This document shows positions 4,289-60,207 of a stretch of 60,968 bases of DNA, in pieces. A program made the translations under genes and the position numbers. The stretch comes from a virus (Duplodnaviria; Caudoviricetes), in IMG/VR virus record IMGVR_UViG_3300025886_000021, positions 1 to 60,968 of that record; one strand, 5' to 3'. Every line of letters begins with the position of its first letter. Position 1 is the stretch's first letter. The notes under the pieces were generated by a model. The model was given only the letters and a program-made list of their open reading frames with translations. It was not told the DNA's origin and searched no databases.

Positions 4289-5512
4289 TTATCCTATATA
4301 TATTTTTAATGGAACTTTGCTTAATATTTCCATTTGTTGAGTAGCTTCCGCCCCTTGCCTTGTGAGCATTTGTTCTTTTGTCAATTTTTCTAAAAATTCT
4401 CGAAGCTGAGTAATTAATGCTTCTTTTTCAGACTGACCTTGACTAACCAAATCTCCTCCGTTTAGTGTTACTTCTCCTCCCGGGATTGGTACATTTGAAT
4501 ATTTGCTACGAATATATCCCAATGTTTCTTTGACTTGAGCCGCTCCATATCTATATATCCAACTACGCCCCATATCATTAATATTGGTGTACTTTTGATA
4601 TGAGTATGGTATATTAGATGCGTCTGTGACTACACCGTTTAAAAGTGCGCTATTCCCAAATAATACCCCATCATTCGTTTTGTCTTTTTCATACATAAAT
4701 TCAAACCAAACTTTGTCATAAAATGGTGTAGATATAGTACCTTGTGTTCCTGGTACTGGATATAATTTGATATCATCTCCATGAATTTCAAATGAAAATG
4801 CGGATTTTCTAATTCGATCGTTCATTTCAATAGTTTGAATTCGGAATAAATCCATATGCAATGGCATCATCATGAAATTGACACTAGGAGAAAATCCTCC
4901 AAAATCAAATGCATCTAAAAGTTGTTGTGAACCTAATCCAGTTCCTACGAATGGATCAAAATATCTTACTATTGCTGGAGGCGTATTATGAAGAACTTTT
5001 CTAATTTCGATACCATTATTATTGGTAATGTCTACACCTAATGATGCAGATACAGCTTTTCTAATACTATATGTTTGTTGTCCGTCTTGTACGTCAATTG
5101 ATGCAGTATGCCATTTTACATTACCTCCGGAGTCTGCTTCTGTTCCATATGTTTTTGATAGCTTAGTAATATAACCTAAATTACCTCCTACTAATGCTCC
5201 AGTAAATCCATCGCCAGTTAAAAAACTCGATCCAGTGTCTACGCCTAATGTGTTTATTAAATTGTTAACAATGTTATTTTGATTAACTTGATTGGAATAT
5301 TCTATAACTGCAGTTTCAAATGCCGTATAAAAATTTATGTCTAATAGTTCAACATCCATGATTGGATATCCAACATGATTGGCAGCAAAGACAGCAAAAC
5401 TATCTGCTTCACTTTGAAATGCATTATCATTATCAAAAAATCCAAATGGTGTTTTTCCAGGCGCAAATGACGAACTACCGGGCCAAATTGGTTTATTTTC
5501 TGAATAGTCCAT
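4289..5512 (-). CDS. Neck protein (gp13-like head-tail adaptor)
   Basis: GYPIMDVEL near the N-terminus; C-terminal WIYRY...KETLGYIRSKY...IPGGEVTLNG typical of gp13. Confidence 0.8.
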   Translation of the reverse strand: MDYSENKPIWPGSSSFAPGKTPFGFFDNDNAFQSEADSFAVFAANHVGYPIMDVELLDINFYTAFETAVIEYSNQVNQNNIVNNLINTLGVDTGSSFLTGDGFTGALVGGNLGYITKLSKTYGTEADSGGNVKWHTASIDVQDGQQTYSIRKAVSASLGVDITNNNGIEIRKVLHNTPPAIVRYFDPFVGTGLGSQQLLDAFDFGGFSPSVNFMMMPLHMDLFRIQTIEMNDRIRKSAFSFEIHGDDIKLYPVPGTQGTISTPFYDKVWFEFMYEKDKTNDGVLFGNSALLNGVVTDASNIPYSYQKYTNINDMGRSWIYRYGAAQVKETLGYIRSKYSNVPIPGGEVTLNGGDLVSQGQSEKEALITQLREFLEKLTKEQMLTRQGAEATQQMEILSKVPLKIYIG

Positions 5513-5525
5513 ATTTTCCTTTTAT

Positions 5526-5533
5526 TATAAATA
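5526..5533 (-). promoter_or_regulatory. Representative of the recurrent (A)TATTTATA putative late promoter
   Basis: Also at 6503, 9572, 10410, 13142, 15005, 19012, 21487, 24240, 30839, 33011, 41051, 43864, 49364, 54607, 57201 and 60161 (minus), and at 50470 and 51985 (plus). Each lies upstream of a co-oriented start codon. Confidence 0.75.
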
Positions 5534-6199
5534 TCAATACTTTTCATTTAGAAGGTTCAAAATCTCTTCTAAAGATTCATGTCGGTGGTTATCTGTTAAA
5601 ATAATTTCATTAACATATTTCGATTCTTTAATTTTTGGTACCTCATGTATAGCAGAATCGTTGGTATATTTTAAATCAATTTGATACCGGTCTCCACATA
5701 ATATCATAGTGCTATGTTTGCCTAACCGACTCACAACCATTTGTAGTTGTTGTTTAGTTAGGTTTTGAAATTCATCTACAATACATATTGAATGATCAAA
5801 AGTACGTCCTCTAAAATGGGCTAATGAAACTAATTCAATATTTTCTTCTTTTTCCATTTTTTCTAATAATTCTGGTTTATTGTAAACTTTTCTCATGTTA
5901 CTTCGTATAGGAACAAGCCATTCGCTCATTTTTTCTTCCAAAGACCCAGGTAGGAATCCATTATCTTCAGTAGATACAGTAGGACGAGTAATAATAATTT
6001 TGTCAACTTCTCGTTTAAAATATTTGTCTAATGCTACTTGTACTGCTAACAATGTTTTACCTGAACCAGCTTTACCTAATATAAAGTTAAATGGTGTTTT
6101 TAATATTTTAGCTTTTGCTTGTTTTTGTTCTTCTGATAATGTTATAGAAAATTTAATACTGTTTTTTGGAGGGGTCTTGACCCGGTTTGGTGTCGACAT
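5534..6199 (-). CDS. phoH: PhoH-family ATPase
   Basis: GKAGSGKT Walker A, ITRP, GFLPG, RGRTF, DEFQN and GDxxQxD motifs. Confidence 0.95.
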   Translation of the reverse strand: MSTPNRVKTPPKNSIKFSITLSEEQKQAKAKILKTPFNFILGKAGSGKTLLAVQVALDKYFKREVDKIIITRPTVSTEDNGFLPGSLEEKMSEWLVPIRSNMRKVYNKPELLEKMEKEENIELVSLAHFRGRTFDHSICIVDEFQNLTKQQLQMVVSRLGKHSTMILCGDRYQIDLKYTNDSAIHEVPKIKESKYVNEIILTDNHRHESLEEILNLLNEKY

Positions 6200-6211
6200 A
6201 TTATAACCTTT

Positions 6212-6487
6212 TTAGCTTAATTTAGTAAGTGTTGTTTGACGATATGACATATCTTTAAGTGTTTCAATTTTACCTAAACATAGTTGTCGAATTGCTTGAA
6301 ATGTTTTATTTGCTGGGTACGGTGTTAAGATTTTAATTTTAACCAACTCTTTATTAGGTCCCAAGTCTTGTTCTATATGAACCATTAAAACTAAACGTAT
6401 TGCTCTGATTCGATCTAACACGTCTACAAGTCGGCCGTCATACCGTATATCTGCAAACATTTCGTATTTGATTCTTGGAACTGCCAT
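6212..6487 (-). CDS. Small hypothetical protein, possible ferredoxin-like fold
   Basis: 91-aa ORF with its own ATATTTATA motif upstream; alternating beta/alpha pattern. Confidence 0.6.
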   Translation of the reverse strand: MAVPRIKYEMFADIRYDGRLVDVLDRIRAIRLVLMVHIEQDLGPNKELVKIKILTPYPANKTFQAIRQLCLGKIETLKDMSYRQTTLTKLS

Positions 6488-8309: not shown

Positions 8310-9470
8310 TTATTTAATTAAACCCGCTAGTTTCTTCCAACGGTTGGCTTGTTCAAAGCCTTCAGTTAATACTTGAGTTGTTGCTTTGCTTGGAGCAGTT
8401 GTTGCAACAGGTTTAGATGCTAATGATCTTGATTCTTTAACTACCTTTCTTTTACCTCTACTAGGCTTTTTGAAAGATTCTGCCAAAGTACTAAATACTA
8501 GTTTAGCTTCTCTTGTGTTTGCTGCTCTATCAAAGTTTTCAATAACTTTCATTTTTTGACCTTCGTTAAGATCAAAGTTTCTGAACAATTTGTTCGTGTA
8601 AAGAAGTTTTGCGTTTAGAAGATTAACTTCGTTGATTACCGATTTAAGATGACCAACCGTACGATATGCTTCGTCAAGTTCTTCTTTAACAACTTTAGAT
8701 TCACTTTCGTTACATCCACATCCGCTTGTTTTGCCTTCTGCCATTGGTTTACCGCAATCTGGGCATTCTTTTTCTTTGTCTTCTTCGTCTTCTTCTTCTG
8801 CTAGAATTGCTTCAATAAGTTCGTCGATCGATTGATTGGTAGATTCTACAACTTGTCCTGGGTCAAGTCCATTGTCTTTTTCGGAATAATTTTCTGGTAT
8901 CATATTATCATCATACTCTGCATAATCGCCTTCGCCATATATACCCTCTTCTTGGGAGTCAGCTTCTAGATCTTCTTCAAGCTCTCGAATAATTTCTTCA
9001 AGACCCAAATCTTCTTCCGCACCCATGGGTCCAACTTCTTCATCTTCGATGCCCATTTGCATTTCCGCGTCATCTTCCATATCAACATCCATTTCTGGTT
9101 CTACATCCATGTCATCCATTCCTGGTTTTGACATAATATCACCAGTAAAGTCAATTTCGCCGTCCATGTCAGTGTCAATTTCGATATCACCAACATCCAT
9201 TGGTTCGCCGTCCATTTCTGGTTCCATTTCCATGCCGTCCATTTCTGGTTCCATTTCCATGTCACCTTCCATGTCATCCATTCCTGGTTCCAAAGCCATA
9301 CCGCCTTCCAACTCTTCGTCTTCTAACTCACTCATCAATTCATTTTCTAGCATACTCTTCATTCTAGGGGCAAATGCCTCTTGAAGAGCAACTTTTGCAT
9401 TCGCTAACGCAGTTTCTTTAACGGCTTTAGCATCCGCAATTGCTTCTTTTAGCAAATCTGATTTTGCCAT
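8310..9470 (-). CDS. Prohead core scaffold protein (gp22-like), highly acidic
   Basis: Directly upstream of the capsid gene; D/E/M-rich with many xxE sites; C-terminal LLNAKLLYTNKLF...RWKKLAGL. Confidence 0.8.
   Translation of the reverse strand: MAKSDLLKEAIADAKAVKETALANAKVALQEAFAPRMKSMLENELMSELEDEELEGGMALEPGMDDMEGDMEMEPEMDGMEMEPEMDGEPMDVGDIEIDTDMDGEIDFTGDIMSKPGMDDMDVEPEMDVDMEDDAEMQMGIEDEEVGPMGAEEDLGLEEIIRELEEDLEADSQEEGIYGEGDYAEYDDNMIPENYSEKDNGLDPGQVVESTNQSIDELIEAILAEEEDEEDKEKECPDCGKPMAEGKTSGCGCNESESKVVKEELDEAYRTVGHLKSVINEVNLLNAKLLYTNKLFRNFDLNEGQKMKVIENFDRAANTREAKLVFSTLAESFKKPSRGKRKVVKESRSLASKPVATTAPSKATTQVLTEGFEQANRWKKLAGLIK
9207..9260. repeat. Perfect 27-bp tandem repeat x2 (encodes MEMEPEMDG)
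   Basis: gccgtccatttctggttccatttccat occurs twice in tandem. Confidence 0.9.
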
Positions 9471-10435: not shown

Positions 10436-10843
10436 TTAAAAGTATTTATTTAATCCTTCGCCAATATCATTTAGTGCAGCTTCCATTTTACGTTCATTAA
10501 TAACAACTTCTGTTGCAGCTTTTTTTAGCTCATTAACTGCGGCTGTTACATAATTCAGTCTGCGCTTTTCCGCTACTTTCTCTAACATTTCATTTTGCGA
10601 TTCACCAATCATACGTTCCGCAGTCTCAACCATTTTGCTAACACCGTTAACCATTTTTTCTAGATTTCTTTTAGTTACCATCGCATCAACTGTTTCTTCA
10701 TATCTAGATATAGCTTCTGAAAATTCTTGTTTTTCTTCTTCTGTTAATGCAGCCGGTTGCTCACCGAATACCGTTTCTTTTTTCAAATGTTGCTCATACA
10801 ATATATCTCGTATAGCGTTTAAATTTTTAGATTCAAATTTCAT
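10436..10843 (-). CDS. Helical hypothetical protein, probable prohead core component (start probably MKFESK at 10843)
   Basis: AGGA upstream of the ATG at 10843; coiled-coil character; downstream of the protease. Confidence 0.55.
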   Translation of the reverse strand: MKFESKNLNAIRDILYEQHLKKETVFGEQPAALTEEEKQEFSEAISRYEETVDAMVTKRNLEKMVNGVSKMVETAERMIGESQNEMLEKVAEKRRLNYVTAAVNELKKAATEVVINERKMEAALNDIGEGLNKYF

Positions 10844-10844
10844 G

Positions 10845-11465
10845 TTATATCCTACATTTACCATCTTCACATAGTATTGATGTGATTATGTCGTTTACTT
10901 TTTTATATTTATTTGTTTTATTTTTTTCGACTGACTCTTTCATCATTCCCATGAATGCACCTTGCGTCGACGGGTTACTAACAAAATCCCAACAAATCAA
11001 TTCAAAATCGTCTTGTACTTCTACAATGCCTTCATTTCTAAGTTCTTTTACGCTACCGAGGCCTCTACTAGAAATACCCAACGTAATACCTTCTTTAAAC
11101 AATGACTTTAATATTTTTCCAGATGGTGTATCTAATACTTGAACTACGCCTTTTAAATCGTCGCCTTCCCACCATATTTTTAAAACATTGTGAGACACGT
11201 TGTTTAAATTGACAACACTTGACTCTGGATGATCTAATTCACCTAGAGCTCTGTTTTGATCTATATATTCTTTCTGATATCTCTGACATTCTCGCATTAA
11301 TATATTTTTAGGATAGACTCTACCATTTTGGTTTTTTGCACCTGAACGTTGCAATATACCTTGAACTACAAATCCTCCTGGGATTCCATATTTAGCACCA
11401 TTTGACTCATTGAGTGACCCAATTGGATTAAATTGCATGTATTCTACTAATAATGGTTTTGACAT
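10845..11465 (-). CDS. Prohead protease (T4 gp21-like)
   Basis: NGRVYP, ALGELDHP, GISSRGLGS and DFVSNPST motifs. Confidence 0.95.
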   Translation of the reverse strand: MSKPLLVEYMQFNPIGSLNESNGAKYGIPGGFVVQGILQRSGAKNQNGRVYPKNILMRECQRYQKEYIDQNRALGELDHPESSVVNLNNVSHNVLKIWWEGDDLKGVVQVLDTPSGKILKSLFKEGITLGISSRGLGSVKELRNEGIVEVQDDFELICWDFVSNPSTQGAFMGMMKESVEKNKTNKYKKVNDIITSILCEDGKCRI

Positions 11466-49373: not shown

Positions 49374-50396
49374 TTAGTCTAGGATTAATGGTGTTTGACA
49401 ACACTCTACATTGATATTAAGCAATGCCTGCTCTTTTGCCTTAGCTTCTACCACAACATCTAGACTGTCTACACCATATGTATTGGGAGTAGTCAATATA
49501 TAATCTGCATGAGCCTGCTCTCGAATCTTGCTAAACTCTTTGTATGCCTTAGCAAACGTTGGCCATTGTGGAAGATCTTCCCAAGCAATATTATGCTTTT
49601 CGCAAATACCTTCGATAAGCCGTTGCTGCTCGTGCCTGCGAGACTCGCTGTAATGAGTGCACTGAGTAACACCATGTTTCTGCCATGTCTCACGAGCCAT
49701 AAAGAATGCCTCCTCCTCGGATAAGTCACCGGTATTGAAAACGTGATGCCAATAGTCAAAAGTAATAGGAATATCAGTATGAACGTGAACCATTTCGTAT
49801 AAGTCACGAACGGAATACATAGACGCTTTGTCGTCATTCTCAATAACAAGACGAGCTTGAACTGAGTCTGATAGTCGATAATAATTACGAATCCACCGCT
49901 CAATAGTAGCCGGCTTATCATTATAAGTAGCACCTATATGAATATTGATCTTGTTGTCATAACTAGGAGCATAGCCAAGCATATCAAACATTTCGCTATG
50001 TCGTTCTAGACTAACAATACTATTTTCAACCACAACCGGATCGGGACTACCTAATATATGAAATGGGCCTGGATGTGTAGTGAGTCGAATACCATGCTCT
50101 CGAGCAAAGTCGCCAGCTTCTTGTAACACCTCACAGATACGATCATAGTCAGGCAAGTCCTTGATCTCGTAATGATTCCAACGAGGAAACATTTCACTGC
50201 CTATACGGAAGAGTCGAATGCCATGGGCTAAATTCCATTTGAGTATAGGGAGTAAATCTTCTGCGTTAAGCAGACTGCGCTCACTTGCCAAAGGCATACC
50301 ACCCTTTTCAAAGATGCGTTGAATCATTGTCCGGCCGGTGCGAATACCTGCCTTGCCTAATGTCATGTTGTTACAGGCATAACCAAATCTAATCAT
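49374..50396 (-). CDS. uvsE: UV damage endonuclease (UvsE/UvdE family)
   Basis: FGYAC, LFRIGS, THPG, NIHIG, ENDD, FDYWHH, HYSES, AHADY and EAKAKE motifs. Confidence 0.93.
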   Translation of the reverse strand: MIRFGYACNNMTLGKAGIRTGRTMIQRIFEKGGMPLASERSLLNAEDLLPILKWNLAHGIRLFRIGSEMFPRWNHYEIKDLPDYDRICEVLQEAGDFAREHGIRLTTHPGPFHILGSPDPVVVENSIVSLERHSEMFDMLGYAPSYDNKINIHIGATYNDKPATIERWIRNYYRLSDSVQARLVIENDDKASMYSVRDLYEMVHVHTDIPITFDYWHHVFNTGDLSEEEAFFMARETWQKHGVTQCTHYSESRRHEQQRLIEGICEKHNIAWEDLPQWPTFAKAYKEFSKIREQAHADYILTTPNTYGVDSLDVVVEAKAKEQALLNINVECCQTPLILD

Positions 50397-50411
50397 AACT
50401 TCTAATTTTAT

Positions 50412-50446
50412 TATTAATATAAGAAAAAAAATGCAGAAATCCTAAT
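50412..50446 (-). promoter_or_regulatory. Repeated host-sigma-type (early) promoter block, copy 1 (others at 51927-51961 and 53371-53405)
   Basis: Minus strand TTAGGATTTCTGCATTTTTTTTCTTATATTAATA; the 35 bp are identical in copy 2. Bipartite spacing recalls Bacteroidota -33/-7 promoters. Confidence 0.6.
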
Positions 50447-50467
50447 ACATAGTATTTTAATAATCGT

Positions 50468-50530
50468 TATATTTATATAAAAGAAACCTAATAGGATAAA
50501 CAATGAAAAATATTTTATCAGAAAATATGC
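50468..50530 (+). repeat. Repeated late promoter + RBS + leader-coding block (second copy 51983-52044)
   Basis: tatatttatataaaagaaacct(a)ataggataaacaatgaaaaatattttatcagaaaatatgc; the copies differ by one indel. Confidence 0.9.
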
Positions 50531-51483
50531 GCAGATTTGGTACTAAGAATTTAACTGAGTCCAACATAAAAAAATTACAAGAACAGGATCCTAAAATAGC
50601 GACAGATATCGCACAGCCAGGTGAAGAAGCCAATCCACTTCCAGATACTCCAAAGAGTCCAGAAAAATTAGTTACCATGTCTGGACCAGACCAAATTAAA
50701 CAACAGCTACAAGGAACGCATAAAGATGCAATTTTATCAATACCGGGATGGGATAAGTTTTTAAAATTAGTGCCTGTTAAAGAAACCACCGCTATGGTTA
50801 TAGATTATGCAGCATTTTCAAATGCATATGCAGCTTATTTGGGCGCTACCAATGGTAGGTTAACAACAATTGAGTCTATTATTGGTAAAAATATTTTCTT
50901 GTTCGTACCTGGTGTTTTTGATAATTATAGTCAAGGTGGGGCATTTAGTGATGCAAATAAAAATGCTAACTTAGTACAATACCTTAAAGGTAATAATATT
51001 GACACTATAATAAAACGAACATATGTTCCCGTTGCTGCTGTTAAATCATTCCATAATGGTGTACATGTATTCCTAAATACAAGAAAAGGTTTTAAAACAG
51101 ACTATTCAGGTAATCCGCAAAATCCGGTATCAACCGATACAGCTCCAGATGGAGATGGCAGTAAACCTGGTGGGACTTCTACATCGTATGGGTCATATTG
51201 GGGTCATAATGGCGAAAAAAGAAGAGGTGGTAATGGTCCAGGTTTGTTAGTACCAATGCAAAGCCCTAGAGCCAATACAAGTTCCGATCAGCAATTAACG
51301 ATCCCAAAAAATGCTGAATTTCGTCTGATGAACTATGGACGCGGAGTCCGAATGAAAATATGGCAAGCGTCAAAAGTTGGATGGGGAAGCAATTGGGAAA
51401 CGTTAATTAACGATTTAAATTCGTGGGATACGATTGCCGGCGGTAATATTACAAATATATACAACGGCAAACAATTAGGTTAA
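50503..51483 (+). CDS. MKNILSENM-leader protein 1 (putative virion cargo)
   Basis: One of only two credible plus-strand genes; has promoter motif, RBS and shared leader. Confidence 0.8.
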   Translation: MKNILSENMRRFGTKNLTESNIKKLQEQDPKIATDIAQPGEEANPLPDTPKSPEKLVTMSGPDQIKQQLQGTHKDAILSIPGWDKFLKLVPVKETTAMVIDYAAFSNAYAAYLGATNGRLTTIESIIGKNIFLFVPGVFDNYSQGGAFSDANKNANLVQYLKGNNIDTIIKRTYVPVAAVKSFHNGVHVFLNTRKGFKTDYSGNPQNPVSTDTAPDGDGSKPGGTSTSYGSYWGHNGEKRRGGNGPGLLVPMQSPRANTSSDQQLTIPKNAEFRLMNYGRGVRMKIWQASKVGWGSNWETLINDLNSWDTIAGGNITNIYNGKQLG

Positions 51484-51484
51484 A

Positions 51485-51904
51485 TTAATAATAAATTACC
51501 GCATCATTGAATAATATAATTGATGATTCATTTTTAATTAAATCATATGTTTTGTAATAAACACAATTATCAATAACTTCTATAGTAATATTATTATTAT
51601 CCGATTTCGAATTACAATATATATATTTTGAAACGTTGTCGACAATTAATGTATCATATGTAAAGTATCGTGTTTCATACCGATTATACATTACAATTTG
51701 TTGCCTTGATTGATCAAATCTAAAGTTATAGTAATAACTAGATTTAAAGTTTCGGTTTATATATTCTTTATTAAAAATAGATTCTTGTGATCCATCTCCT
51801 TCAATAATATATTCAATACCAGACGTAGTATGAATTTTACTTTGCCAATCTTGGCTAAATACAATTGAAGAATTAACTAATACTAATAATAATAACTTTT
51901 TCAT
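51485..51904 (-). CDS. Secreted beta-rich protein 1
   Basis: Signal peptide MKKLLLLVLVNSSIVFS|Q; convergent with 50503-51483. Confidence 0.75.
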   Translation of the reverse strand: MKKLLLLVLVNSSIVFSQDWQSKIHTTSGIEYIIEGDGSQESIFNKEYINRNFKSSYYYNFRFDQSRQQIVMYNRYETRYFTYDTLIVDNVSKYIYCNSKSDNNNITIEVIDNCVYYKTYDLIKNESSIILFNDAVIYY

Positions 51905-52016
51905 AATTTTATCTTTTAATTTATACTATTAATATAAGAAAAAAAATGCAGAAATCCTAATTAGCAGTTTTTTAGTTATACATATATTTATATAAAAGAA
52001 ACCTATAGGATAAACA

Positions 52017-52826
52017 ATGAAAAATATTTTATCAGAAAATATGCAGCGGTTCGGAACCAAAAATTTAAACGAATCCAATATTGAAAAATTAAATGAAAAT
52101 CAGGGTCAGATAAGAATGACCGTAAGCGGCCGAAGGAATAAACAACCAATTGGAGATTTGAATCTCCAAAATAAAGTACAGATACCATATGATACCCGTT
52201 TCGTTACAGATACGGATAGTAGATCGATATCAACATTGGATCCTAAAGTTAAATATGTTAACGCAAATTACACGTTACGAATATACAACAAAACTCTCTT
52301 AAATGAATTTCGACAGCTCACCGGTGGAACTATTATTCTTGATAAATTAGAATTTGTTCCAAATGGAAACATGTTTGGAACATCATTAAATTGGAAAGAT
52401 ACTATAGAATTAAATCAACAAATACCTTTAAGTAAAGGCTCTATGACAACTACTCAAATTCAAATACCAATTCCAGCGCCGAAAGCTGCTGCAAGTCTTG
52501 ATTCGAGTAAAAATAAAGTCAACATTAGTTTTAAAGAGTCAGATGGCGGCAAGAGTCTTGGGATCGATGGAGCTAGATATACCTTAAGAGGTCGTATACA
52601 GTCACGAACGCGAGACCGAGCTACCCTGGTAGCCAATATAGAAAAAGCCATTGCAAGTGGGAAATTAAAAGATACAGATGGCGGTAAAGCTAGAATGGCA
52701 CAATGGGATGCAGCTAATCCTAGTGGCACCAGTGCCGCAACTACTTCTGGAGCATTTTATGTACAAATTCCAGTTAGTCTTTCTAGTATTGCTATTCCAG
52801 TTAGCCCAAGTCAAGGACGTGGATAA
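52017..52826 (+). CDS. MKNILSENM-leader protein 2 (putative virion cargo)
   Basis: Same upstream block and leader as 50503-51483, but an unrelated body. Confidence 0.8.
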   Translation: MKNILSENMQRFGTKNLNESNIEKLNENQGQIRMTVSGRRNKQPIGDLNLQNKVQIPYDTRFVTDTDSRSISTLDPKVKYVNANYTLRIYNKTLLNEFRQLTGGTIILDKLEFVPNGNMFGTSLNWKDTIELNQQIPLSKGSMTTTQIQIPIPAPKAAASLDSSKNKVNISFKESDGGKSLGIDGARYTLRGRIQSRTRDRATLVANIEKAIASGKLKDTDGGKARMAQWDAANPSGTSAATTSGAFYVQIPVSLSSIAIPVSPSQGRG

Positions 52827-52846
52827 TAATATTATATAAACGTAGT

Positions 52847-52872
52847 AAAGCCCCTTAATTGGGGCTTTTTTT
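52847..52872 (+). terminator. Intrinsic terminator between convergent genes (possibly bidirectional)
   Basis: AAAGCCCC-TTAATT-GGGGCTTT-TTTT. Confidence 0.85.
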
Positions 52873-52886
52873 ATGACCGTAACGTC

Positions 52887-53348
52887 TTATTGCATATCAA
52901 CTACACTCATAGTAATAGTACCGGTTGGATTTACTATAGTTGCATCAATGCTAGAATCATACCATATATGAGTCATGGTCTTTTCAGATGTATCAATATA
53001 TACTTTAATAAAAAATGTACGATTAGGATCAGTTCTACCATAATCCGTCAATGTTAAAACATATTCACTTCCATTTCGTTCAACATTATTAATTGGAATA
53101 GTACTACCAATATTGCCCAATGATCTGCTAAAAAATGTGCTTGTCATTTCTTGAAGATCGAATGTATAATCGCAATCTGCAGGAGTTATACCCGAATCAT
53201 GATCTGGATTATTAATAATTGTTTCTGGATTTGTAATATATCCGGACTTATAATATGTCTGAACATCTTTACATGTAACTTTGATTTTTTGTGAAAAACT
53301 CACAGCGGCAATCAACAACGACACGGATAATAATAATAACTTTTTCAT
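52887..53348 (-). CDS. Secreted beta-rich protein 2
   Basis: Signal peptide MKKLLLLSVSLLIAAVSFS|Q; 25 bp around the start are identical to secreted protein 1. Confidence 0.75.
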   Translation of the reverse strand: MKKLLLLSVSLLIAAVSFSQKIKVTCKDVQTYYKSGYITNPETIINNPDHDSGITPADCDYTFDLQEMTSTFFSRSLGNIGSTIPINNVERNGSEYVLTLTDYGRTDPNRTFFIKVYIDTSEKTMTHIWYDSSIDATIVNPTGTITMSVVDMQ

Positions 53349-53404
53349 AATTCTTTCTTTTAATTTATAATATAAATATAAGAAAAAAAATGCGTATATC
53401 CTAA

Positions 53405-53953
53405 TTATTTCTTAACAAATCCTTTCAGAAAATCTTTTTGACGATCTATTGCATTGTCGAGATCTTTTTTTGATGCTTTTGCATTGCTTGTGCGCTTTCG
53501 TGTAGAGCTAGGCTTAGCAACATCTTTGTGTGTAGTGGATGATCTTCGCTTTGTATTTTTTCTACTATTGCTATCATCATTTCCTCCGCCGCTTGAATTG
53601 TCATTTCGCTGCGGATCCTTGTCGCTTCCGGAGTTTTCATAAATTGCGATACTCTGCGGCCAATCTCCGCTTTGTGTTCTGTCGTGGAGTATGAATCCGA
53701 CGTCATATTGAGTTCGATATCCTTTGATTTCGAACTCAATTGGGTATCTGGTGATATAGTCATTTGGGTTGAGTCCCTTTTCGTGGACTTCAACCATGTA
53801 ACTACGGCCCCAACCATTTTCTTTACTGCTTTTAACATAACCTGTCTTTATTTGTCCTAACCATTGAATGATTACCAATTCGCCGGACTTATACATAGCC
53901 TTTTCGAACTGTTTAAGCACATATGCTGGTATTTTATTCTTCTTCTTTGCCAT
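53405..53953 (-). CDS. Hypothetical protein, SH3-like N-terminus with basic disordered tail
   Basis: YKSGELVIIQW.G...GYV pattern; K/R/S/N-rich C-terminus. Confidence 0.55.
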   Translation of the reverse strand: MAKKKNKIPAYVLKQFEKAMYKSGELVIIQWLGQIKTGYVKSSKENGWGRSYMVEVHEKGLNPNDYITRYPIEFEIKGYRTQYDVGFILHDRTQSGDWPQSIAIYENSGSDKDPQRNDNSSGGGNDDSNSRKNTKRRSSTTHKDVAKPSSTRKRTSNAKASKKDLDNAIDRQKDFLKGFVKK

Positions 53954-59387: not shown

Positions 59388-59626
59388 GTAAAAAACTCTG
59401 CTAATTGTTGTGATACTTTATATGCCTGGTCATCATCCATGCCTTTTGTGGCACTACGATACGCTTTAACTACTTCATTGAAAGCAGATACTACTGCAGA
59501 GTCTGGTTCAAACTCAACTTCATTTAAATTGGCTCGATGTTTTGCTGTTGAGTCAGCAAGTGTCGGTAAGCTCCCATCGGAGTTACGCTCCCAAGCATAT
59601 CCTTCTAGTAGTTGTTTTAGTTTCAT
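59384..59626 (-). CDS. Small leader-bearing hypothetical protein
   Basis: MKLKQLLEG...LPTLAD...NLNE. Confidence 0.6.
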   Translation of the reverse strand: MKLKQLLEGYAWERNSDGSLPTLADSTAKHRANLNEVEFEPDSAVVSAFNEVVKAYRSATKGMDDDQAYKVSQQLAEFFT

Positions 59627-60135
59627 TTACTCTGTCCGTAATTGCTATCATACCCCGCTGTATCAGGTGGGGTTGTATTAGGTTCCGTCGCGTACTTCCT
59701 CTTATACTCTGTTTCTGCAAACTTATATGCTTTGGAATTGACTATGCGGTTCCACTGTGATTGGGATAATGTGTTTTCAACCGCTTTTCTAATATCCATA
59801 ATAATGCTTTCTGAAAACCTTGTCGTATTTAAAACCGAAGTTGCATACATCCCTGCATCTGCAGTTTGTGTAGTATCATCTCCTTTCGATAATGCGTCAT
59901 AGTCGACTTGCGTCAAGTTTTCCGCTGCTTTTCTAACCCTAGGGTCACTTTCCTCAGCTGATTTAGTTTTAATATTCTGCAGAGAAGCAGGAGCTTGGTT
60001 CCCATCTCCACCATATTGTTGTAAAGCCATGCGTATAAAATCTAAATTTATATCTCGGTTGTAAGTGCTTTCAATACTTTCTTTAAGATTCTTGGTACCA
60101 AATCTTCTCATGTTTTCTCGTAATATGTTTTTCAT
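59623..60135 (-). CDS. MKNIL-leader protein 3 (putative virion cargo)
   Basis: MKNILRENMRRFGTKNLKES; promoter motif at 60161-60168 and AAGGA RBS. Confidence 0.8.
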   Translation of the reverse strand: MKNILRENMRRFGTKNLKESIESTYNRDINLDFIRMALQQYGGDGNQAPASLQNIKTKSAEESDPRVRKAAENLTQVDYDALSKGDDTTQTADAGMYATSVLNTTRFSESIIMDIRKAVENTLSQSQWNRIVNSKAYKFAETEYKRKYATEPNTTPPDTAGYDSNYGQSK

Positions 60136-60207
60136 TGTTTCCTTTAAGGGTTTTATTTATTATAAATATAGTACGTTGTAAAAAGAACGCTAGTACGCCC
60201 TTTCAGG

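Follow-up and report, generated by a model that had tools for sequence, protein, structure and literature searches.

Leader-tagged genes and exported-protein genes face each other at a shuffled locus of an uncultured T4-like phage of marine flavobacteria

RESULTS

A variable locus with two kinds of gene

The IMG/VR virus record IMGVR_UViG_3300025886_000021 (60,968 bp, CheckV completeness 36%), which at its full length is called the window here, is from an uncultured T4-like phage of marine flavobacteria (Flavobacteriia). Between the gene for the UV-damage endonuclease UvdE and a conserved gene for a protein of ~182 aa it carries a variable locus, in which genes sharing a 20-residue N-terminal leader face genes for exported proteins. 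With slightly better than even confidence we regard this locus as a recombination-prone accessory region holding two independently shuffled kinds of cassette, one for head cargo and one for early exported proteins. The leader itself is best read as a functional analogue, not a homologue, of the capsid-targeting sequence (CTS) of phage T4, because the phage has a T4-type head with a prohead protease of the S77 family, the leader ends in (L/I)xE and a late-type promoter motif precedes the leader genes. The same protease, cleavage-type site and structural-gene promoter motif lend support, by inference, to an earlier reading of this DNA (the original prediction), which had the leader genes as late, virion-targeted cargo. 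The anatomy of the locus, its distribution and synteny, its mosaic breakpoints and the association of its genes with sequence motifs were observed directly.

Two units of the same layout

The gene call places 64 of 66 genes of the window on the minus strand. The two on the plus strand, leader genes 1 and 2, are its only credible plus-strand genes, as originally predicted. The predicted layout was confirmed as well: there are two units of ~1.5 kb, in each of which a leader gene on the plus strand faces a signal-peptide gene on the minus strand. Behind the near-identical leaders the bodies share no detectable similarity and fall into separate BLAST clusters, again in agreement with the prediction.

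The left flank is the UvdE gene (49374–50396, minus strand; Pfam PF03851, E = 5.9e-58), which also flanks the locus in the related records G001, L053, L137, L138 and L139. Upstream of it lies the first copy of a repeat block (50412–50446, minus strand), which contains the -35/-10-like sequence TTAGGA-N18-TATATT. A late-type promoter-like core, ATATTTAT (50469–50476, plus strand; extended form ATATTTATATAAAAG), is found 34 nt 5' of leader gene 1 (50503–51483, plus strand), whose 326-aa product consists of the leader MKNILSENMRRFGTKNLTE followed by S, then LQE followed by Q, then the body. Exported gene 1 (51485–51904, minus strand; 139 aa, signal peptide MKKLLLLVLVNSSIVFSQ) converges on it at a distance of 1 nt, and the second copy of the block (51927–51961, minus strand) forms its promoter-like region. 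No terminator-like stem-loop was found between the two genes of this unit.

In unit 2 the late-type core (51984–51991, plus strand) lies 33 nt 5' of leader gene 2 (52017–52826, plus strand; 269 aa), which encodes the leader MKNILSENMQRFGTKNLNE followed by S, then LNE followed by N, then an unrelated body. It faces exported gene 2 (52887–53348, minus strand; 153 aa, signal peptide MKKLLLLSVSLLIAAVSFSQ), whose promoter-like region is the third copy of the block (53371–53405, minus strand); this copy includes an exact late core on the minus strand. A G+C-rich stem-loop followed by a T run, AAAGCCCC-TTAATT-GGGGCTTT (52847–52868, plus strand), separates the two genes of this unit at their 3' ends and is likely both a terminator and a recombination boundary. 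The right flank of the variable locus is the conserved 182-aa gene (53405–53953, minus strand), homologues of which flank the locus in G001, G002, L137 and L142.

Both leader genes of these units start MKNILSENM(R/Q)RFGTKNL(T/N)ES, and neither has a Pfam or PHROG match. Both exported genes start MKKLLLL, continue with a hydrophobic stretch ending in FSQ and then diverge into unrelated bodies. The window has a third leader gene (59623–60135, minus strand, 170 aa; MKNILRENMRRFGTKNLKES) with the leader MKNILRENMRRFGTKNLKE followed by S and a late core at 60162–60169. It lies on the main strand and has no exported neighbour.

One leader on many unrelated proteins

A degenerate DNA pattern for the leader was found in at least 118 IMG/VR stretches, and with relatives added there are at least 167 leader open reading frames (ORFs), 152 of them unique, encoding 55–707 aa with a median of 183. 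A profile built from 139 leader peptides was then searched against 1.84 billion proteins (E <= 1e-3) and retrieved 1,259 representatives of clusters at 50% identity, the match lying nearly always at residues 1–30. Seven leader residues (E, N, R, F, K, N and L) do not vary among 139–148 diverse proteins (alignments A3, A7 and A8). By comparison, the 55–62 cassettes analyzed hold 27–40 families of bodies, and one N-terminal peptide thus stands on proteins that are unrelated to each other. None of 55 leader proteins from cassettes matched Pfam, and 5 of the 148 best leader representatives did (LysM, 2; Lcl_C, 1; Fib_succ_major, 1; DUF6680, 1); toxin domains of Pfam were found in none of the 55 or the 148. 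Several leader genes are present per genome, with four in G001, two to three in G002 and three in the partial genome of the window.

The end of the leader resembles a protease site. In 126 of 152 unique leaders [LIVM]xE occurs directly at KNLxE, and a further (L/I)xE follows within 45 residues in 100 of the 152. Over the first 60 residues [LI]xE has a density of 0.047, compared with 0.005 in the remainder. The leader copies of genes 1 and 2 differ at eight synonymous and two non-synonymous codons, all in the second half of the leader; the leader peptide, not its DNA alone, is therefore under selection. The first 27 nt of these two genes, together with ~40 nt upstream, are near-identical. No hydrophobic or known secretion motif was evident in the leader on reading its sequence, a tblastn search of 50,697 cultured-phage records gave a single match at chance level, and the string RFGTKNL was absent from the literature full text searched.

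Structure prediction by AF2 gave leader protein 1 a mean pLDDT of 47, with confidence confined to about residues 60–175. Body 1 had no usable match in the ESM Atlas, and none in viral contigs when either the single sequence or an alignment was used. Motifs resembling annexin and OmpA, seen by eye in some bodies, were dropped after a Pfam search of ten large bodies at E <= 1 returned noise. The N-terminus of an ORF at 10436–10870 resembled the leader by eye, a likeness not supported by the leader profile, which has no significant match to the head-core ORFs of the window.

Three further observations concern N-termini and cargo. Many unrelated C-terminal bodies have in common a 'long leader' of ~55 residues, in which ..AAQRELVLKSIMETINEHGLH....L.EQ is added to the 20-residue leader (for example G001 126312–126923, L105 5172–5786 and L139 3018–3557). 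At the locus of the relatives, large genes on the leader strand have other conserved N-termini, MQ.PAI..IIREEL.L.EQ and MI.LK.LL.E, which also contain (L/I)xE (L137 2474–3898, L139 5498–7447 and L140 2372–3727; also L137 1257–2450, L139 7470–8708 and L140 3724–4572); these may be further classes of propeptide. Finally, in the metagenome leader proteins P0016, P0017, P0019 and P0020 a middle part resembling a coiled coil is accompanied by a glycine-rich stretch and, at the C-terminus, a hydrophobic segment, features that suggest insertion into a membrane after delivery.

The T4-type head module

The window encodes a T4-type head module with the Gp23 major capsid protein (MCP), Portal_T4, the large terminase and the Peptidase_S77 prohead core protease. 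The protease, of the T4 gp21 type (10845–11465, minus strand; Pfam PF03420 Peptidase_S77, E = 2.3e-30; phrog_207), is presumed to be the enzyme that removes the leader. Among 10 long leader-bearing records, six encode it, and it is present in both complete genomes (G001, 159.6 kb; G002, 158.3 kb); the four long records without it are fragments. By MCP, the closest cultured phage is Flavobacterium phage vB_FspM_immuto, at 56% identity, and the locus itself gave no blastn match to cultured phages. Between the protease and capsid genes an extremely acidic, repeat-rich protein of 386 aa with MDGE and PEMD runs is encoded (8310–9470, minus strand). It has no family match, and its position is that of the scaffold gp22 in T4.

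Repeat blocks and promoter patterns

The repeat block of 33–35 nt has copies at 50412, 51927 and 53371, with start-to-start spacings of 1515 and 1444 nt. Its 18-nt core, ATATAAGAAAAAAAATGC, is exact at 50417, 51932 and 53376. At up to three mismatches the core has six matches in the window, a number that none of 100 shuffles reached. Copies 1 and 2 are identical over 33–35 nt and copy 3 differs from them at a few bases. The original prediction had three such copies bounding the units; the three copies are there, but rather than being unit boundaries as such they form the predicted promoter regions immediately 5' of genes on the minus strand, copy 1 that of UvdE, copy 2 that of exported gene 1 and copy 3 that of exported gene 2.

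On the minus strand the blocks read TTAGGA or TTGGAT, 17–18 nt, and TATATT or TATTAT, an arrangement that recurs upstream of the partner genes of relatives. We expressed it as a regular expression of our own, T[TA]GGA[TA]-N15-19-TATWWT, the early pattern. This pattern precedes all five exported genes at the locus in G001 and G002, plus ~15–20 other genes per genome. In G001 it has 36 matches, 21 of them upstream of genes, compared with 8 and 2 for a reversed pattern used as control. Ten early-pattern genes of G001 were examined, eight of which had a Pfam match and none of which was structural; the products include Cpn60, an AAA ATPase, two glycosyltransferases, a PD-(D/E)XK nuclease, GTP cyclohydrolase I, a PolA-like protein and an HD protein. 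These associations support a predicted promoter of the early or middle class for the exported genes. The chaperonin, of the Cpn60/GroEL type, is found behind the early-type pattern in both complete genomes (G001 4723–6333, L129; G002 96507–98123).

The late core, ATATTTAT(AWWAAA), has a different distribution. Of its 30 exact occurrences in the window, 21 lie no more than 60 nt upstream of a gene start on the same strand, and among the genes behind it are the portal gene, a number of genes for the tail or baseplate and each of the three leader genes. Among the cassettes, 54 of 65 leader genes have the exact core upstream.

Shuffling of the locus in relatives

The locus lies between UvdE and the conserved ~182-aa gene, and its contents differ from relative to relative. 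Between the same flanks there are two cassettes in the window and three in G001, and other arrangements, including tandem leader genes, are found in G002, L053, L137, L138, L139, L140 and L142. The flanks are 82–90% identical in DNA, while the interior has been swapped module by module. Homology between the window and L142 starts at 52824, precisely where leader gene 2 has its stop codon, and runs on through the stem-loop, exported gene 2 and the flank; a cargo body has therefore been exchanged without its partner. Shuffling and change of copy number, both anticipated in the original prediction, were thus observed directly at one syntenic locus, with breakpoints at conserved modules.

In public runs the locus was found in marine and estuary metagenomes from several studies. 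In four such runs, all of which consist of contigs, many different sequences were joined to the conserved module at 51874–51918. Some contigs have joints from 50411 to 51927 (skipping unit 1), from 53326 to 51886 (back by one unit) or from 50428 to 53396 (skipping both units). These block-to-block joints may stem from natural deletions and duplications, or from joining at the 35-nt repeat during assembly. Two RNA libraries contain short pieces of UvdE, the start of leader gene 1, body 1, both exported genes and the right flank; these pieces, which may be DNA carry-over, give neither strand nor timing, and the uncovered parts are uninformative.

Exported partners and the question of cognate pairing

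By a heuristic search, a signal peptide or N-terminal membrane segment is present in 59 of 65 convergent neighbors of leader genes, compared with 126 of 1,897 genes overall. Among 55 exported partners, eight have a CAP domain, three are rhomboid proteins, one is a DUF2927 protein and the remainder have no family; some are small proteins with two membrane segments. The mature part of exported protein 2 is predicted by AF2 to be all-beta, with 10 strands (mean pLDDT 85). A Foldseek search of this model against PDB gave only weak matches of the LolA, TbpB and lipocalin-like kind (best E = 2.2e-3, TM <= 0.44; LolA, TM 0.39), too weak to place the protein in a fold family.

The enrichment of exported neighbors is what one would expect if, as first proposed, each virion-delivered effector had a cognate exported partner, made early and acting in the envelope as a neutralizer, for immunity or for allele-specific superinfection exclusion and kin recognition. 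We consider this unlikely, although part of the evidence fits it. Among 62 dereplicated cassettes, homology extends to both body and partner in 22 pairs of cassettes. Permutation gave a mean of 1.2 such pairs and at most 7, with 22 reached in none of 2,000 permutations; this test ignores physical linkage and shared descent. A family of bodies of 500–700 aa stands beside a CAP-domain partner in seven of seven cases. For exported gene 1, a set of 5.8 billion proteins held only three clusters of homologues, and this family occurs only with orthologues of leader gene 1, by direct context in L138 and L139 and by an indirect third link; identities are 82, 66 and 52–54% for the bodies and 96, 86 and 66–72% for the partners. 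LysM is present in two of the 148 leader proteins, a hint of activity against the cell wall. There is also a precedent in T4, where Spackle inhibits the virion lysozyme gp5. However, linkage of body and partner is expected without any interaction between them, because conserved modules flank both bodies and the loci share descent.

The proposed co-variation of effector and partner alleles in relatives is not strict: in contrast to the 22 concordant pairs, 50 pairs of cassettes are homologous in the partner only and 10 in the body only. In 14 pairs with partners at least 70% identical, the bodies were at least 70% identical in one, 40–70% in five, below 40% in two and unrelated in six. Conversely, in the 32 pairs with homologous bodies the partners were unrelated in 10. 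One partner allele of 152 aa (75–86% identical) stands beside four mutually unrelated leader genes encoding 205, 157, 223 and 322–336 aa, and distant homologues of body 1 (33–44% identical) stand beside other partner families, including DUF2927. The breakpoint between the window and L142, at the leader gene 2 stop codon, also runs counter to fixed pairs. Twelve of the 55 partners are CAP, rhomboid or DUF2927 proteins, which are enzymes and unlike the small proteins typical of immunity. A downstream neighbor is present for 147 leader genes, and for 82 of these it is a same-strand gene in place of a convergent one, the third leader gene of the window being among the 82. Moreover, a cytoplasmic cargo and a periplasmic partner could meet only at ejection. 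Co-folding of body 1 (residues 60–326, 11 rows) with mature exported protein 1 (residues 19–139, 4 rows), run without controls, gave ipSAE values of 0.00/0.00, which speak neither for nor against binding.

A fixed cognate pairing is not supported, with partner alleles occurring beside unrelated cargo and the pairing loose, though a looser functional link may exist. It is conceivable, if doubtful, that the cassettes are matched pairs, in which a head protein is ejected into the next host's envelope and, if a resident phage is attacked by a second virion, that same allele is bound, cleaved or blocked by the resident's early exported protein. Allele-specific superinfection exclusion, a form of kin discrimination, would then operate in a large clade of marine flavobacterial phages, and the mismatched pairs would reflect either recent recombination or a broader specificity of some partners.

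Other readings of the leader

The leader could instead be another kind of targeting or docking peptide, for outer-virion decoration, a fiber-like adaptor or a host structure, and not a cleaved head-core propeptide. Receptor-binding and decoration proteins, too, have a conserved N-terminus and a variable C-terminus. Leader genes behind a late-type promoter would suit such a role, and so would the few surface-type domains among the 148 representatives (two LysM, one Lcl_C and one Fib_succ_major). On the other hand, the leader has only ~20 residues, ends in the protease-type (L/I)xE in 126 of 152 cases and shows a 9-fold local excess of such sites; the bodies are as short as 55 aa and as long as 707 aa, and several leader genes occur per genome. 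We therefore hold this reading to be improbable. Even less credible, to the point of being nearly dismissed, is a shared 5' sequence that acts only as DNA or RNA, as a site of recombination or translation initiation with a functionless peptide: near-identity over the first 27 nt and ~40 nt upstream and breakpoints within these modules would fit it, but the excess of synonymous differences in the second half of the leader, the seven invariant residues and the recovery of 1,259 clusters at the protein level do not.

DISCUSSION

A model for the locus

We favor the reading of the locus as an accessory region of two independently shuffled cassette kinds. The first kind would comprise a late promoter, the 20-residue leader and a variable body. 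The leader would dock the protein in the prohead core, where the S77 protease would cleave it behind NL-x-E and, in many cases, once more behind a second (L/I)xE 10–35 residues further on. The trimmed body would be kept in the head and ejected with the DNA into the next host, probably as a fast-evolving protein for host takeover or anti-defence. The second kind would comprise an early promoter of the -35/-10 type (the block), a conserved signal peptide or membrane anchor and a variable body, and its products would be early exported or membrane accessory proteins acting on the cell envelope. Modules of promoter plus leader and of promoter plus signal peptide, sometimes with a 3' stem-loop, would serve as the homologous stretches through which single genes or pairs are exchanged, inserted or deleted, and such exchange at the back-to-back modules would keep both repertoires diverse. 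The opposite orientation may shield the cargo genes from early read-through; in unit 1, with its genes 1 nt apart, late transcription would cross exported gene 1 in the antisense direction.

Several points weigh against this reading. For this clade we infer packaging, cleavage, timing and ejection. The early pattern is a self-made regular expression, and a generic sigma-70 scan showed no enrichment and did not flag the blocks (28 sites in all, compared with 19.2 +/- 4.5 expected). The predicted division into late leader genes and early exported genes, which the promoter motifs favor, is ambiguous where partners carry the late core: an exact core lies in the upstream regions of 16 out of 59 partners, exported gene 2 among them. 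The closest cultured phage, immuto, has no match to the leader profile, and an alignment of the leader with the N-termini of T4 ipI, ipII and ipIII has only M1, K2 and one F in common. Independence of the two cassette kinds is also insufficient for the tight unit 1, which stays together in four of four relatives (two by direct context, one indirectly), and by itself leaves the enrichment of exported proteins beside leader genes unexplained.

Should the leader prove to be a capsid address tag, the proteins likely to be injected by these widespread uncultured marine phages would be readable from sequence alone. At least 1,259 clusters, nearly all domainless, would then form a pool of candidate anti-defence and host-takeover proteins, and the leader would possibly serve as a portable packaging tag for flavobacterial phages.

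Comparison with known systems

The closest likeness is to the internal proteins of T4. T4 internal proteins and Alt enter the prohead core by an N-terminal CTS of 10–20 residues, and gp21 cleaves Alt at ITE-6 and LTE-619 (PMC5694885). The packaging leader is the sole part shared by Ip1–3, whose genes lie in a hotspot (PMC12373910, PMC3012670). Here, as in Ip1, Ip2, Ip3 and Alt in those accounts, a short conserved N-terminal peptide stands on unrelated, fast-evolving, non-essential proteins; the head is of the T4 type with a gp21/S77 protease, (L/I)xE lies at the leader end, and several such genes per genome are grouped in a hotspot. There is a positional parallel as well: T4 ipII and ipIII directly adjoin denV, the gene for the UV-repair endonuclease V (T4 record 64939–66415, L144), and the present locus lies beside the analogous but unrelated UvdE. 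In contrast, the leader of IpII and IpIII has 10 residues, compared with 20 here, often extended to ~55, and the cargo repertoire of 1,259 clusters is far larger. Unlike the T4 internal-protein genes in the passages cited, the leader genes of the two units run opposite to nearly all others and are interleaved with early exported-protein genes. This alternation at a hotspot is absent from the cited portions of the T4 literature, and it raises the question of whether it is a by-product of promoter shuffling or reflects ejected and exported proteins meeting in the envelope.

As a shuffling device, the locus is a functional analogue of the PeSL (promoter-early stem-loop) cassettes of T4-type phages, the promoters here being predicted. 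In those cassettes, as here, the orphan genes of a hyperplastic region lie between repeated promoter modules, and relatives are distinguished by inserted, deleted or replaced DNA whose breakpoints fall in the repeats (PMC2839356, Arbiol et al. 2010). A stem-loop of the GGGG...CCCC type is likewise present at one junction (52847–52868). Unlike in PeSL, no inverted repeat was found inside the block, the only strong stem-loop being the one at this 3' junction. The conserved module also reaches into coding sequence, at one end into that of the signal peptide and at the other into that of the leader, and it is bidirectional, with early-type and late-type promoters back to back.

Polymorphic toxin-immunity loci (CDI, Rhs, T6SS/T7SS) are similar in having a constant N-terminus, a variable C-terminus and an adjacent small variable gene. 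They differ in that the leader here does not act as a secretion signal, the searches of the leader proteins yielded no toxin domain, the neighbor is convergent, exported and often an enzyme, and pairing is loose. Early exported superinfection-exclusion proteins of other phages can act on incoming virion components: T4 Sp acts against the gp5 lysozyme, and HK97 gp15 and TP-J34 Ltp act against tape-measure proteins. The partners described here are like these in being early exported proteins whose possible target is a virion-delivered protein, and unlike them in that no homology was found and that they are of many unrelated folds. What is new is the combination of a putative T4-type head cargo tag with promoter-mediated shuffling of cassettes, and its unusual, unexplained feature is the regular pairing with exported-protein genes.

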